Source of the DNA: Polyangiales bacterium
GTDB taxonomy: Bacteria > Myxococcota_A > Polyangia > Polyangiales > Ga0077539
Direction: 5' to 3'
NCBI GenBank assembly: GCA_044229975.1
Contig: JBGARZ010000011.1
Location: 256,001 to 320,000 of the forward strand
DNA: 64,000 bases
Made by a program: the position numbers and the translations under genes. Positions 39,529 to 47,513 of the stretch are shown here, one piece after another. The notes under the pieces were generated by a model. It worked only from the letters and a program-made list of their open reading frames with translations. It was not told the DNA's origin and searched no databases. Position 1 is the first letter of the stretch. The number at the start of each line of letters is the position of its first letter.

Positions 39529-39659
39529 CAACGCGGGATGCTCGCACGCGCAGGAAAAGTGCTCAACCCACGGGCGACCATCGCGACCGTCATGAACGCC
39601 GACAAGTCCGTTGACCGTCGCACCGCCGTGGGTGTCCCTTCGAAGCCATGAGGTCCCCG

Positions 39660-42062
39660 ATGCGTCACGGTTTCGCCAGCGCCCTGCTCGTGCTCGCGCT
39701 CTCCCTCGCAGCCTGTAGCAGCGGCAACTCGGTCGTCGGTGGCGGCGACGCCGGCTCCGTCGTCGACCTCGGCGCGTCCGACCTCGGCCTCCCCGATGTG
39801 CCGTCGCCCATGGATGTTCTGCCCCCCATGGACGCGCCCGACGTCCCGGCGCCGATGGACACACCCGATGTTCTGCCCGTCGACAACGGGCCCGCGCGCT
39901 GCGCCGCCGACGGCGACTGCGTGGGCAACGCCGGCGGCCCCGCCTGCGACGTCACCTCGGGCCGCTGCGTGACGTGCACCACTGCTTCCGACCGCTGCCC
40001 CGCAGGCCAGTACTGCGTCGGCGCCACCAACACCTGCGCCAGCGGGTGCCGCGACGACGCCGCCTGCAACACGGGCGGCGCGCCCGACGGCGGCGCCTCG
40101 TCGTCGCGGCGCTGCGACACCGCCACGCACGCCTGCGTCGACTGCCTCACCGACGATCACTGCCCCTCCGGAACCCTCTGCGTCGGCAACCTCTGCGTCG
40201 CCGGCTGCAACGCCGGCCGCGCGTGCCCCGCCACGCAGACGTGCTGCTCCGGCGCGTGCGTCGACGCGCAGTCCAACAGCGCCCACTGCGGCGTGTGCGA
40301 GCGACGGTGCATGGTGGCCAACGCGGTTCCGCTGTGCCTCAACGGGGGGTGCGCCATCGTCGCCTGCGTCGCGCCCTTCGGCGACTGCGACGGGATGGCG
40401 GCCAACGGCTGCGAGGTCGACACCTCGCGCGACACGGCCCACTGCGGCGGCTGCGGCATGGCCTGCGCCACGCGGCCCAACACCATCACGAGCTGCGCGG
40501 GCGGCGCCTGCGCGTACGCCTGCGCGACGGGCTTCGCCAACTGCGACGGTGACCCGAGCAACGGCTGCGAGGCCGACGTCCGCGTGAGCACCACGAACTG
40601 CGGCGGCTGCGGCGTGCGCTGCTCCCCGGTCAACGCGACGGCGGCGTGCGTGGCGGGCGCGTGCGGCTACACGGCCTGCGCGGCGGGCTACGGCGACTGC
40701 GACGGCAACGCGGCCAACGGCTGCGAGGCCGACCTGCCGGTCTCGGTGAGCCACTGCGGCGCGTGCGGCAACCGCTGCCCGGCGACGGCCAACGCGGCGC
40801 CGGTGTGCGTCGGCGGAACGTGCGGCACGGTCTGCACCGCGGGCTTCGCCGACTGCGACAGCAACCCGGCCAATGGGTGCGAGGTCGACACGCGCACCGA
40901 CATCGCCCACTGCGGCGGCTGCGGCCGGCGCTGCGGCGCCGCGGGCGGGGCGCCTACCTGCGTGGCGGGCGGGTGTTCGCTGGCCTGCGCCGCGGGCTTC
41001 GCGGACTGCGACAGCAACGCCACCAACGGGTGCGAGGTCGACACGCGCACCAGCCGCGCGCACTGCGGCGGCTGCGGCATCGCGTGCGACGCCAACGCGG
41101 CCTGCACCGGGAGCTGCGTGTGCAACCCGGGGTACATGGGCAGCGGGCTCGTGTGCGCCGACGTCGACGAGTGCGCGACGGCCAACGGCGGCTGCGACGC
41201 CAACGCGACCTGCCGCAACACCGTCGGGTCGCGCACCTGCACGTGCAACGAGGCGTACACGGGCGACGGCGTGACGTGCGCGCCGGTGATCATCGACCTC
41301 ACCATCGCGGCCAGCACCACGGCGTACAACGTGTTTCTCCAGGCGGGGGCGCCGATGATCCCGCGCGTGGTGCGGGTGACGGTGAACCCGGGCGTGGTGG
41401 TGAGCTCGACGAGCACGGGCGTTCCGGCGCTGGTCTCGGGCGCCTTCCGCGCGGGCTCCGAGCTGCGCATCGTCAACCGCGGAACCATCACCGGCGCGGG
41501 CGGCGCGGGCGGCGCGGGCGGCGGCTTCTCGGGCGCCGGCCCCAACCCGCAGAGCGCGGGTGGGGCGGGCGGCGCGGCGATCTCGACGACGACGCGCCTG
41601 GTCATCGACAACACCGCAGGCAACATCTGGGGCGGCGGCGGTGGCGGCGGCGGCGGCGCGGTGGCGACCATCACCAACGTGCTCGCGGGCGGCGGCGGTG
41701 GCGGCGGCGGCGCGGGCACGACGGCGGGCGGCGGCGGCGCGGCGGGCCCGGCGTTTTCGGGCGCGCAATACCCGGTGGGGTATGCGGGCGGCGCGGGTTC
41801 GGCGAGCGCGGGCGGCGCGGGCGGCGCGGGCGGCAACAGCGGGACGTACCCGCGGCAGTACGACGGCAGCGGTCGCGGGCTGGGTGGCGCGGGCGGCGCG
41901 GGCGGCGGACCGGGTCAGGCGGGCGGTCGCGGTGGCGACGGCAACCTCGGGGGCGCGGGCATGGCAGGCGGCGCGGCGGGCAACGCCATCGTGCTCAACG
42001 GCAACACCGTGACGTGGATGGGCGGGGACAACAGCACGCAGGTGCGCGGGCCGGTGAACTGA
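39660..42062 (+). CDS. Cys-repeat surface lipoprotein with EGF-like domains and a Gly-rich tip
   Basis: LAAC lipobox; about six CGxC...DCD..NGCExD units; DVDEC EGF; polyglycine C-terminus. Confidence 0.88.
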   Translation: MRHGFASALLVLALSLAACSSGNSVVGGGDAGSVVDLGASDLGLPDVPSPMDVLPPMDAPDVPAPMDTPDVLPVDNGPARCAADGDCVGNAGGPACDVTSGRCVTCTTASDRCPAGQYCVGATNTCASGCRDDAACNTGGAPDGGASSSRRCDTATHACVDCLTDDHCPSGTLCVGNLCVAGCNAGRACPATQTCCSGACVDAQSNSAHCGVCERRCMVANAVPLCLNGGCAIVACVAPFGDCDGMAANGCEVDTSRDTAHCGGCGMACATRPNTITSCAGGACAYACATGFANCDGDPSNGCEADVRVSTTNCGGCGVRCSPVNATAACVAGACGYTACAAGYGDCDGNAANGCEADLPVSVSHCGACGNRCPATANAAPVCVGGTCGTVCTAGFADCDSNPANGCEVDTRTDIAHCGGCGRRCGAAGGAPTCVAGGCSLACAAGFADCDSNATNGCEVDTRTSRAHCGGCGIACDANAACTGSCVCNPGYMGSGLVCADVDECATANGGCDANATCRNTVGSRTCTCNEAYTGDGVTCAPVIIDLTIAASTTAYNVFLQAGAPMIPRVVRVTVNPGVVVSSTSTGVPALVSGAFRAGSELRIVNRGTITGAGGAGGAGGGFSGAGPNPQSAGGAGGAAISTTTRLVIDNTAGNIWGGGGGGGGGAVATITNVLAGGGGGGGGAGTTAGGGGAAGPAFSGAQYPVGYAGGAGSASAGGAGGAGGNSGTYPRQYDGSGRGLGGAGGAGGGPGQAGGRGGDGNLGGAGMAGGAAGNAIVLNGNTVTWMGGDNSTQVRGPVN

Positions 42063-42078
42063 CGGCGATGGCCGCGGG

Positions 42079-42240
42079 TCACTCCAGCTCGTTGGTGATC
42101 TCGATGGGGCTGCCGACGATCTGGCCGTCGGTGGCGGTGCCCGTGCGGGAGAAGGTCGAGTAGCGCGTGTCGCCGTCGAGGTCGCCGATGGCGGTGACGG
42201 TGAAGGAGGCGTTGGCGCCCGTTCCGGCTACGGTGGTTTC
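42079..42240 (-). pseudogene. C-terminal fragment of a type IV pilin-like gene
   Basis: ASFTVTAIGDLDGDTRYSTF...ITNELE*; in-frame TAG upstream, no start or N-terminal helix. Confidence 0.6.
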
Positions 42241-42289
42241 CTACTGAGGAGATCGACTTCTTCTCTGCTTCCAACGTCGCACAGTTCGC

Positions 42290-42529
42290 CGCGTCCACGC
42301 CGGAGTTCACCGTGCCGCCCCCGCGCCCGTCACGCTCGGTTCACTCCGGGCTATTTCACGCGGATCGCCCCGCCGCAGCGGGGCTCCGTGCCTCCGTCCA
42401 GGGACGACAGAATGCCTTCAGGTGGGCCTCCTGAGCCCCGCTGCGGCGGGGCGATCCGCGTGAAATAGCCCGGAGTGAACCGAGCGTGACGGGCGCGGGG
42501 GCGGCACGGTGAACTCCGGCGTGGACGCG
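42290..42529. repeat. Long inverted repeat (REP doublet-like), family B
   Basis: Perfect 97-bp arms at 42290-42386 and 42433-42529. Confidence 0.9.
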
Positions 42530-42537
42530 ACGGGTTC

Positions 42538-45054: not shown

Positions 45055-47394
45055 TCAGCGCGCGACGCAGAGCGCGAAGCGACCGGAGACGGTGTTGCCG
45101 ACGGAGCACCACGACGACGACTCGGCGCCGCACGACGCGGTGTTGCCGATCCAGTGGGTGCCCATGTACTGGTAGACGCCGAAGAGGGCGGGGCACTGGG
45201 GCGGATCGGTGCCGCAGAGGGTCTGCGCGAGGCGCTGCATGGGATTGCCGCAGCTGTTCTCGAAGTTCATCTGGCGGCAGAGGCCGTCGTTGTAGGTGCA
45301 GCCCGACACGCCGGTGCAAGGCGCCGTGAGCCCCGCGCCGTTGCACGCCGCCAGCACGTTGGCGTCCGTCAACAACCCCGGCACCGGAACCCGGTACCAT
45401 GTGATGCCGCCCGCCACGCCGACCACCGTCGCCGACACGCACGACCCGCTGGTGCAGGTGCCCGACGAGCAGACGTTGCCGCACGACCCGCAGTTGGTGT
45501 TGTCCGACGAGAGCGTGCGGCACACCCCCGAGCAGTTGGTCTGCCCCGCGCCGCACACCACCACGCACGACCCGCCCACGCACGCGCGCCCGGCGCCGCA
45601 CGCGTTGCCGCAGGCGCCGCAGTGGCTGGCGTCCGTGCTCGTGTCGCGGCACGCCCCGCTGCACAGCGCGAGCCCCGCGCCGCACACCGACCCGCAGACG
45701 CCCGCCGAGCACACGCGCCCCGCGCCGCACGCCGTCCCGCACGCGCCGCAGTTGGCGTTGTCCGTCGCGAGCGAGCGGCACACGCCCGAGCAGTTGCTCG
45801 TCCCGGCCGTGCACGACACCACGCACGACCCACCCACGCAGCGGTTGCCCGCCGGGCAGACGTTGGTGCAGCTCCCGCAGCGGTTGACGTCCGTCTGGAG
45901 GTCGCGGCACACGCCGTCGCAGGCGTTGAGCCCGCTGGCGCACACCACCTCGCAGCGGCCCGCCGTGCAGACCTGGCCCGCGATGCAGGTCGTCCCGCAC
46001 GCGCCGCAGTTCTCGCGGTCGCGCAGCAGGTCGCGGCACGTCCCGCCGCAGTTGGTCGTTCCGCCGCCGCACGACAGCGTGCACACGCCCGCCGAGCACA
46101 CCTGGCCCGTCGTGCACGTGCGCCCGCACGCCCCGCAGTGGGCGCGGTCGGTGGTGAGGTCGCGGCACGTCCCCGAGCACTCGCTCAGGCCCGCGCCGCA
46201 GCTCACGGTGCACACACCCGCCGAGCACACCTGGCCCGCGTCGCAGGTCGTCCCGCACGCGCCGCAGTTGCGGCGATCGGTGTCGAGGTCGCGGCACGCG
46301 CCCGAGCAGTTGCTGAGCCCCGCGCCGCAGCTCACGGTGCACGCCCCCGCCGAGCACACCTGCCCCTCGGCGCACGCCGTCCCGCACGCGCCGCAGTTTG
46401 CGCGGTCGGTCTGCGTGTCGCGGCACGTCCCCGAGCACTCGCTGAGCCCCGCGCCGCAGCTCACGGTGCACACGCCCGCGGAGCACACCTGACCCGCGGC
46501 GCAGGCCGTCCCGCACGCGCCGCAGTTGGCGCGGTCGCTCGCGAGGTCGCGGCACGTCCCGGTGCAGTCCGTGGCGCCGCCCGCGCACGAGAGAACACAC
46601 CGCGCATCCGCGCAGATCTGCCCGGCCGCGCAGGCGCTGCCGCACGTCCCGCAGTTGGCGCGGTCGCTGCGGAGGTCACGACACGTCCCGGCGCAGTCGC
46701 TCAGGCCGGTGACGCACGACACCGCGCAGCGGCCGCCGATGCACACCTGGCCGTCGCCGCAGGCCATGCCGCAGCCGCCGCAGTGGGAGCGGTCGGTCTG
46801 CGTGTCGCGGCACGTCCCCGAGCAGTTCTGCAGGCCGCTCACGCACGACACCACGCAGCGGCCGTCGGTGCAGATCTGCCCGTCGCCGCAGGCCATCCCG
46901 CAGCCGCCGCAGTTGGAGCGGTCGTTGCGCGGGTTGGCGCAGTAGCGCTCGGCGCCCGCGTCGCTGCTCACGTTGATGGGTCCCTGACAGAGCTGGAGCG
47001 ACGCGCCGCACTCCAGCGCGCAGCGGCCCATGGCGCAGACGAGGCCCGCGCCGCACGCCGTCCCGCACGCGCCGCAGTTCGACCGATCGGTGTCGGTGGT
47101 GACGCAGCGATCGCCGCACAGCACCTGCCCCGTCGGGCACGACGCCTGGCAGGCGCCCGCGACGCAGACCTGGGTGCGCGGGCACGCGCGGCCGCAGGCG
47201 CCGCAGTGGTCGCCGTCGTCCTGGAGCGACACGCACGACCCGCCGCACGCGACCTGCGGCGCGGTGCAGGTGACGTCGAAGCCGGCGTCCATGGGGGTGA
47301 CCACGCCGCTGACGAGGGGTTCGCTGCTACAGCCGAGCGCGAGGGCGACGAGGAAGAGGGCGAAAGCGGCGACGGGGGACATGGTGCGGCGCAT
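45055..47394 (-). CDS. Cys-repeat surface lipoprotein with a distinct Cys-rich tip domain
   Basis: LALGC lipobox; about 14 units of ~37 aa (CRDxxxDxxNCGACGTxCxxGQVC). Confidence 0.88.
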   Translation of the reverse strand: MRRTMSPVAAFALFLVALALGCSSEPLVSGVVTPMDAGFDVTCTAPQVACGGSCVSLQDDGDHCGACGRACPRTQVCVAGACQASCPTGQVLCGDRCVTTDTDRSNCGACGTACGAGLVCAMGRCALECGASLQLCQGPINVSSDAGAERYCANPRNDRSNCGGCGMACGDGQICTDGRCVVSCVSGLQNCSGTCRDTQTDRSHCGGCGMACGDGQVCIGGRCAVSCVTGLSDCAGTCRDLRSDRANCGTCGSACAAGQICADARCVLSCAGGATDCTGTCRDLASDRANCGACGTACAAGQVCSAGVCTVSCGAGLSECSGTCRDTQTDRANCGACGTACAEGQVCSAGACTVSCGAGLSNCSGACRDLDTDRRNCGACGTTCDAGQVCSAGVCTVSCGAGLSECSGTCRDLTTDRAHCGACGRTCTTGQVCSAGVCTLSCGGGTTNCGGTCRDLLRDRENCGACGTTCIAGQVCTAGRCEVVCASGLNACDGVCRDLQTDVNRCGSCTNVCPAGNRCVGGSCVVSCTAGTSNCSGVCRSLATDNANCGACGTACGAGRVCSAGVCGSVCGAGLALCSGACRDTSTDASHCGACGNACGAGRACVGGSCVVVCGAGQTNCSGVCRTLSSDNTNCGSCGNVCSSGTCTSGSCVSATVVGVAGGITWYRVPVPGLLTDANVLAACNGAGLTAPCTGVSGCTYNDGLCRQMNFENSCGNPMQRLAQTLCGTDPPQCPALFGVYQYMGTHWIGNTASCGAESSSWCSVGNTVSGRFALCVAR

Positions 47395-47513
47395 CGAGAG
47401 GGCTCCTTCGGTGGGGAGGAGGGCAGCGTATGCGAAGGGCGCCGACGGGGGCGAGCGGATGATGAAGCGCACCGATGCGCGTCATCGGTGACGCGGGCGT
47501 TGGCGATGGAGCA

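Follow-up and report, generated by a model that had tools for sequence, protein, structure and literature searches.

The gp38 adhesins of T-even phages (Straboviridae T2, S16 and PP01; Pfam PF05268; structures 6F45 chain D and 9V85) are described as binding OmpC and OmpA through their loops (PMC12892980, PMC12032242), and in PP01 gp38 it is Tyr209 and loop E that engage OmpC (PMC12892980). An N-terminal attachment domain has been described for these proteins (PMC6851490), and exchange of cassettes at the Gly-rich motifs has been reported for T-even gp38 (PMC3157838). Partly phage-like tips are also known from cells, in the mosaic adhesive trimers (MAT) of Bdellovibrio bacteriovorus, a family encoded by the cell itself whose members have the presenting end in common, vary in the tip and are proposed to serve in prey recognition; these are trimeric beta-prism fibers, many with S74 chaperones (PMC10769870). 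Among myxobacterial envelope proteins, TraA combines Cys-rich repeats with a terminal recognition domain, and it has an N-terminal polymorphic PA14-like domain, on which its kin recognition depends, a C-terminal MYXO-CTERM and a neighboring traB gene (PMC6372800).

Two further groups are known mainly as database entries. The MXAN_6577-like cysteine-rich proteins make up the family NF041328, and no paper naming this family was found in the literature searched. The He_PIG proteins WP_060192682.1 (Burkholderia ubonensis) and WP_414648148.1 (Castellaniella) bear the automatic label 'Receptor-recognising protein Gp38 domain-containing', just as such Burkholderia proteins in UniRef are automatically named 'Gp38 domain-containing', and the literature searched held no functional study of them. 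Here we describe a putative lipoprotein of a Polyangiales bacterium in which a Cys-repeat stalk related to the former group carries, as profile and predicted-fold comparisons indicate, a gp38-type tip like that of the latter.

Results

Architecture of the lipoprotein

The window analyzed is a stretch of 64,000 nucleotides (GenBank assembly GCA_044229975.1, contig JBGARZ010000011.1, positions 256,001 to 320,000) from a genome of 10.0 Mb and about 71% GC with 43 MYXO-CTERM matches, in keeping with a myxobacterial host. The features of the gene are collected in Table 1; its reading frame has an alternative start at a second ATG (39660), and the mature lipoprotein has Ser at +2 and Val at +7. The repeat motifs of the stalk lie at residues 245, 297, 349, 401, and 452, and the stalk matches NF041328 with an E value of 1.3e-18 and 67 bits, which is below the 100-bit cut-off of that family; its members share related Cys repeats with the lipoprotein but lack the gp38 tip. 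A predicted model of the stalk was unusable (pLDDT 51.5). All 75 Cys residues of the protein lie upstream of the tip, whose 258 residues include 82 Gly and no Cys.

Table 1. Features of the lipoprotein gene, with positions numbered from the first nucleotide of the window.
Feature	Position	Strand	Basis or remark
Whole gene, 804-aa putative lipoprotein (P0001)	39648..42062	+	ORF list; orthologues 787-807 aa
Predicted type II signal peptide and lipobox LAA-C23	39648..39716	+	sequence; lipobox retained in orthologues
Pro/Asp-rich linker, residues 24-83	39717..39896	+	lowest conservation; mean identity 0.62 (8 orthologues)
Cys-rich stalk, residues 84-482	39897..41093	+	five ~52-aa repeats
EGF region, residues 483-546	41094..41285	+	Pfam EGF_3 (PF12947), E 3.9e-12
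gp38-type tip, residues 547-804 (P0002)	41286..42062	+	predicted beta-helix plus Gly-rich sandwich; PHROG, profile, fold
Motif LRIVNRGTITG	41463..41495	+	
Loop L1	41514..41561	+	most variable loop in the genus, identity 0.74
Motif GGAAI	41568..41582	+	
Motif LVIDN	41598..41612	+	
Motif GNIWG plus Gly run	41619..41654	+	
Loop L2, T.TNVL core	41655..41693	+	common to several phyla
Loop L3, FSGAQYP core	41739..41789	+	most constrained segment; identity 0.90, dN/dS 0.11; cross-phylum
Loop L4, SG.YP.Q core	41826..41894	+	common to several phyla
Loop L5	41925..41972	+	conserved in genus; not in Betaproteobacterial proteins
Motif GGAAGNAIVLNGNTVTW	41967..42017	+	
Motif VRGPVN	42042..42059	+	

Features of MAT fibers were not found in this protein: EGF_3 (residues 509-544) is its only Pfam family, a second EGF-like module upstream of it being assigned from the Cys pattern alone, and the stalk consists of Cys repeats. 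Where MAT are trimeric, the lipoprotein would be lipid-anchored and its tip is of the monomeric type. The hallmarks of TraA and TraB are likewise absent, as the lipoprotein appears to be anchored N-terminally by lipid and ends in a conserved C-terminal gp38-type tip, without a polymorphic PA14-like domain, MYXO-CTERM or an adjoining traB. A two-copy complex prediction returned a score of 0.00, which gives no verdict and is evidence neither way.

Homology of the tip to phage gp38

A preliminary description of this DNA had read the tip as a gp38-like polyglycine adhesin from a series of motifs, all of which are present, in frame and in the order given, within the reading frame (Table 1). Both this assignment and the anatomy that it implied, in which a cellular stalk bears a binding head of phage type, are backed by PHROG, profile and fold evidence. 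The tip matches phrog_2056 ('tail fiber protein; host specificity') with an E value of 1.3e-5. With a profile built from 118 relatives, the top two of 16 PDB matches were the gp38 proteins of S16 (6f45_D, 4e-9) and PP01 (9v85, 5e-5), and the S16 score of 28.7 bits was reached by none of 300 shuffles that kept the Gly positions. An HHpred-type comparison, as the preliminary description had proposed, also favored gp38: hhalign of 346 domains against seven T-even gp38 proteins gave an unmasked probability of 98.5.

Other routes gave mixed results. Pairwise BLAST of the tip against S16 gp38 was not significant (E 0.36), the local Pfam GP38 model (PF05268) did not match the lipoprotein, phmmer with the single tip and with one relative retrieved no gp38 among the PDB sequences, and tblastn with the low-complexity filter on gave no match in 50,697 phage records. 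A PF05268 search of the organism's own genome was also without a match, the controls being equally silent. The same model was matched in the local scan by 78 of the 118 aligned relatives, and the precomputed PF05268 label was carried by all 85 matches in one search, among them orthologues 75-78% identical to the tip, and by all 120 listed matches in another, these being the best 120 of 223. GP38 was also named in 29 of 30 Atlas matches at 0.96, a weak result given a recognition value of 2019, below the 2300 mark.

The question of whether the similarity survives masking of Gly, raised in the preliminary description, has a divided answer. In profile-profile comparison it persists weakly, with masked scores of 25.5 and 33.9 (probability 5 and 37) that none of 60 column shuffles reached, while in profile-to-sequence comparison the S16 signal is lost once Gly or Gly runs are replaced by X, the score then being reached in one test by 31 of 300 shuffles and in another by 255 of 500. 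Against 111 GP38-labeled relatives the Gly-masked query scored 120.7 bits, reached by none of 500 shuffles. Homology beyond Gly content is indicated by the profile-profile, Gly-position-keeping shuffle and GP38-labeled-relative tests and, judged from these profiles and from the predicted fold, the tip is a homologue of gp38.

Predicted fold

The AlphaFold2 model of the tip (pLDDT 94.5, pTM 0.91) is ordered across the Gly-rich half and contains hardly any helix or strand. The match to S16 gp38 that the preliminary description had anticipated was recovered by VIA with Z 23.1 (6f45_D, 200 residues, 2.6 Å), followed by PP01 gp38 with Z 21.9 (9v85_C), so that 200-206 residues align to the two solved gp38 structures at 2.6-2.7 Å. 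The third-ranked of 48,161 chains had Z 8.7, and matches to the beta-helix only aligned at most 121 residues with Z no higher than 8.7. Foldseek (E 3.5e-10 and 3.3e-7) agrees with the gp38 match. The training cut-off of the structure-prediction models is April 2018, and 6F45 was released on 2018-08-01. The tip is predicted to consist of a beta-helix and a three-layer polyglycine sandwich.

The structural match starts at chain residue 44-45 of gp38, which indicates that the gp37-attachment domain is absent, and the tip begins at the beta-helix, immediately after the EGF region. In sum of likeness, the tip and the gp38 proteins of T2, S16 and PP01 share the beta-helix, two Gly-rich excursions, the motif order and the C-terminal closure. 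Unlike T-even gp38, the tip has neither the N-terminal Trp attachment domain nor a gp37 partner and is fused to a cellular lipoprotein stalk; its loops are longer and conserved where those of gp38 are hypervariable, and its gene lies among housekeeping neighbors rather than in a phage tail-fiber locus.

Loop conservation within the genus

Five loops were delimited in this work between the Gly-rich motifs, and alignment to S16 suggests a distal position for them. The preliminary description had pointed to loop variability among orthologues as a check, and hypervariability of the T-even type between the Gly-rich motifs is not seen: across eight full-length orthologues, from five genomes and three metagenome contigs, identity within the tip is 0.85 in the loops and 0.86 in the scaffold. 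The corresponding values for seven T-even gp38 proteins, a set more divergent overall than the genus orthologues, are 0.07 and 0.42, in line with the published hypervariability of their loops (PMC12032242). The tip is the most conserved region of the lipoprotein, with a dN/dS of 0.26 versus 0.46 for the stalk and values of about 0.5 for L1 and L2, the absolute figures being distorted by a GC3 near 0.95 and the pairs being non-independent. Between species, tips differ by up to 23%.

A shared loop set in other phyla

At least two of the three loop motifs of L2-L4 occur in 30 of 346 distinct domains (coverage over 70%). Outside the genus, the carriers include EGF or lipoprotein forms from other Myxococcota (genomes of the family f77, an Archangium MAG and the protein P0211), a lipoprotein in a cluster named Bdellovibrio sp., and the He_PIG proteins of B. 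ubonensis and Castellaniella, which resemble the lipoprotein in their gp38 tip and L2-L4 loop set and differ from it in their secreted Ig-repeat stalk and in a scaffold identity of only about 0.3. A further carrier, P0245, combines DUF7483 with Gly_rich_2, has no signal peptide that could be found, and may be a phage protein. The shared tips sit on unrelated long spacers, namely EGF, He_PIG, Big_9 and cadherin-like, and ASH-type Ig.

When 11 Betaproteobacterial-type Ig tips were compared with the query, scaffold identity was 0.34 (background 0.36, sd 0.05, n = 314), whereas identity over L2-L4 was 0.56 against a background that averaged 0.07 and did not exceed 0.24; since the group was chosen by its loop motifs, the loop value is partly circular and the scaffold value alone is independent. 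On a tree computed without the loops, comprising 74 rows (24 of the loop type after near-duplicates were dropped, and 50 others, with S16 left out), the loop-type label needs five changes, two of them forced by starred branches. Placing the loop type in one clade was neither rejected nor shown by an AU test that covered 21 of these 24 rows (p 0.08). Cassette exchange of the kind reported for T-even gp38 is a candidate explanation for this cross-phylum pattern, and inheritance is another. The loop patterns match four metagenome contigs; two loop-specific DNA patterns, exact and of fixed spacing so that variants are missed, matched no viral contig, and a plasmid search with the L019 tip gave no match.

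Genomic context and distribution

The tip gene is a cellular gene. It is chromosomal and single-copy, its neighbors include genes for an RRM protein, a metallophosphoesterase, miaA and glycogen synthase, and a Pfam scan of 11 neighbors found no phage family. The GC3 of the tip (0.93) is close to that of long ORFs (median 0.92), which had themselves been chosen for a GC3 exceeding 0.88. A search for a sigma-70 promoter at the gene found none, and terminator-like sites occur at chance frequency. Sequencing runs (17 rows, shares of at most 0.23, one RNA at 0.05) are uninformative on habitat and expression.

All eight other species of the genus that were searched carry the gene, three of these copies being cut by contig ends and one (in G002) frameshifted, and the lipoprotein fusion is intact, in frame and under purifying selection in the eight full-length sequences. 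With the same query, none of 22 genomes from other genera of the family and none of 30 from other families of the order gave a match, and a class-wide single-protein search of 300 genomes yielded one weak match with many stops. In a draw of 400 genomes from the phylum, with two candidates scored per genome, 11 match the tip part of the profile, with at least two other loop types among them, some on different stalks; of the 94 matches that the phylum search gave, most are to EGF rather than to the tip. Related-locus searches on Gly-run patterns returned at least two loci each, and the genes flanking the tip gene are unlike those of three related metagenome contigs.

A repertoire of stalks and tips

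A motif scan of the genome found 100 ORFs with Cys-repeat stalks, compared with 21 MAT proteins reported for B. bacteriovorus (PMC10769870). Tips of at least 100 residues are present in 87 of them and fall into 43 BLAST clusters, and a lipobox-like start, recognized by a crude regular expression, occurs in 74 of the 100 versus 53 of 400 control ORFs. Twenty tip representatives were scanned with Pfam: nine gave tip-type families (fibrinogen-C, PPC, RCC1, FGE-sulfatase, FG-GAP, Kelch twice, SBBP, and BNR), one gave a stalk motif only, and ten had no match.

Beyond this genome, 1,993 cluster representatives match the tip, and 52 of 316 gp38-domain proteins have a signal-peptide-like start by a crude measure, their scaffolds being ASH-type Ig, TIG, Big_9, LamG, and pilin N-methyl; from these two counts, cellular use of the gp38 domain is not rare. 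In a literature search that covered few subscription journals, no surface protein of a cell was described as having a gp38 domain, and the term 'gp38' does not occur in the main texts of the MAT paper, a predation review and a PilY1 survey. What specialists would find new is the fixed loop set across phyla and the repertoire of 100 members.

Discussion

The reading favored here, to which we give a probability of about 0.55, is that the tip acts as a surface-displayed adhesin with a single, conserved ligand on foreign bacteria, these probably being Gram-negative neighbors or prey. Because the loops hardly vary and turn up again in proteins of Bdellovibrio and Burkholderia, one conserved target is likely and discrimination between kin unlikely. 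The protein would be lipidated at Cys23 and routed to the outer membrane, because the +2 residue is Ser, neither Lys nor Asp; Lys or Asp at +2 has been linked to inner-membrane retention and, in Myxococcus xanthus, Ala at +7 to export to the matrix (PMC3222651). The +7 residue is not this Ala, which counts against a surface route. By default, lipoproteins of the outer membrane are turned toward the periplasm and reach the surface only by a dedicated route; the present one might be flipped there as CglB is (bioRxiv 10.1101/2020.07.22.216333); its surface exposure is suggested by the lipobox and the architecture only. The stalk would take over the part of the phage gp37 fiber as a spacer stiffened by disulfides, and binding would occur through L2-L4 and their aromatic residues, in the manner of the PP01 gp38 loops on OmpC. 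The ligand might be a conserved porin loop, an LPS or a glycan epitope, and breadth of recognition would come from the other tips of the repertoire. The domain probably came from a large phage-like gp38 pool and then became fixed on one specificity.

Prey or neighbor binding by the tip, the former of the two roles considered in the preliminary description, is plausible. Predation by the genus is assumed from its membership in the myxobacteria. The carriers in Burkholderia and Castellaniella are not known to be predators, and the ligand in common might therefore be found on something other than prey. The presence of the loop set in these non-predatory Betaproteobacteria also speaks for the strongest competing explanation, that the target of the tip is matrix and not cells (an exopolysaccharide, a polymer of flocs or biofilms, or a surface of eukaryotic or abiotic origin) and that the tip so anchors the cell in aggregates. 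Sister tips such as fibrinogen-C, PPC, FG-GAP, Kelch, and BNR are generic binding modules, the Tyr and Phe residues in the loops would suit sugar binding, and loop B of PP01 gp38 may contact LPS sugars (PMC12892980). The gp38 adhesins characterized in the accounts cited above nevertheless bind outer-membrane proteins or LPS on cells, and we regard matrix binding as a minority possibility, perhaps one chance in a handful. A role in the periplasm or in cis, in which the protein would hold an outer-membrane protein of the same cell and serve it in structure, assembly or receptor masking, agrees with the periplasm-facing default of lipoproteins in the CglB preprint and with the strict single-copy conservation in the genus, as expected of a fixed partner. 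Such a partner would hardly be common to Myxococcota, Bdellovibrio and Burkholderia, however, and the unrelated long spacers beneath the same tips look made for display away from the cell, which renders this explanation improbable.

Kin recognition, the other role that had been suggested, fares slightly worse still. The tip would here be a self-recognition receptor, binding the same tip on related cells as TraA does, and the Cys-rich stalk resembles that of TraA, whose recognition groups can be switched by single residues (PMC6372800); the between-species differences among tips, greatest in L1, could then matter. The tip is nevertheless the most conserved region and not the most variable, with loops conserved throughout the genus and L2-L4 common to other phyla. 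None of the 43 MYXO-CTERM matches in the genome falls in this gene, the Pfam scan found no PA14-like domain in the lipoprotein, the scanned neighbors include no traB-like gene with OmpA or TSP-3, and phage gp38 is described as monomeric with heterologous receptors. The least probable account, that the tip was left behind by a prophage or tailocin or is a Gly-rich tail that resembles gp38 by chance, could appeal to the pairwise BLAST result, to the loss of the masked profile-to-sequence signal and to the failure of the local Pfam model. It is largely refuted by the fold match at Z 23, by the masked profile-profile and GP38-labeled comparisons that no shuffle equaled, by the intact fusion under purifying selection and by neighbors free of phage families.

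A wider proposal can be put forward tentatively around the preferred reading of the tip as an adhesin for other bacteria, as one that is less likely than not to hold. A gp38 head may have been domesticated as a general cellular adhesin, its L2-L4 cassette spreading, on stalks of unrelated kinds, among myxobacteria, Bdellovibrio and mobile elements of Betaproteobacteria. Two predator lineages without close kinship would then hold on to a single conserved feature of the Gram-negative surface by the same means, derived from phages. The lipoprotein would belong to a set, not described before, of about 100 lipoproteins with interchangeable stalks and tips, which would be the myxobacterial equivalent of the MAT repertoire.

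How predatory bacteria recognize prey is largely an open question, and a predation review lists only pilus tips and, for Bdellovibrio, the MAT and MIDAS adhesins (PMC12428579). Being compact and conserved in its loops, the gp38-type tip is easily made as a GFP fusion, for which PP01 provides a precedent, and would be a direct probe for a shared receptor. A phage-virion fold would here have been put to use on proteins of cells, where its evolution runs the opposite way, with loops that are fixed and not hypervariable.

Stalk and tip repertoire of the genome

Across the source genome, 100 open reading frames (ORFs) carry a Cys-repeat stalk like that of the gp38-tipped lipoprotein, most of them with a lipobox-like start, and they end in tips of at least 43 kinds. 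Among them are several Gly-rich tips that are distinct from gp38 and match no Pfam family. In another species of the same genus, the orthologue has a frameshift inside the tip (G002:C172:58588-59360), which is either a real lesion or an assembly error.

Features at the lipoprotein gene and at other gp38-like loci
Feature	Location	Strand	Remark
Pilin-like open stretch	window ~42070-42230	-	short; resembles a pilin C-terminal end
Near-perfect palindrome	window 42287-42532		246 nt; 100-nt arms, 99% complementary
Example Cys-repeat stalk ORF	window 45055-47472	-	
Carrier of Betaproteobacterial-type loops	L019:128-16105		
Pilus-like operon	L089:8641-13306		Rhodoferax ferrireducens plasmid NC_007901.1, typed conjugative

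Downstream of the lipoprotein gene

The palindrome is likely a MITE or REP-like element, with 20 loci of at least 200 nt in the genome. The stop adjoining it forms the upstream limit of the pilin-like stretch, which resembles the C-terminal end of a myxobacterial type IV pilin; six similar ends occur elsewhere in the genome.

The gp38-like domain in other settings

Among the relatives of the tip, the gp38 domain is fused in P0018, P0019, P0023, P0034 and P0077 to proteins labeled by Pfam as FG-GAP plus Tc-toxin-B-component or SpvB-type. Hint or intein labels are found on P0027, P0050-P0053, P0056 and P0057, the Hint domain of P0027 being inserted within a loop of the tip. The Betaproteobacterial-type carrier of the L2-L4 loop set, at L019, is surrounded by genes for SLT, RNA ligase, SmpB and SRAP and by the end of a DnaE-like gene, and this mix suggests that the locus is part of a large mobile element.

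In P0115, P0271 and P0110 the gp38 domain lies behind a pilin-like N-terminus (P0271 has an N-methyl motif there, and one member of alignment A1 has Flp), an arrangement suggesting, from sequence, that these proteins may be pilus-tip adhesins. The Rhodoferax operon closes with a gene for a 1060-aa fibre-like protein, a stand-alone gp38-like ORF of 301 aa that the PLSDB table does not list, and a gene labeled "tail fiber assembly protein." The loops of this ORF are unlike the loop type of the myxobacterial lipoprotein tip, and these genes possibly supply the plasmid's pilus with a fibre tip of phage type.
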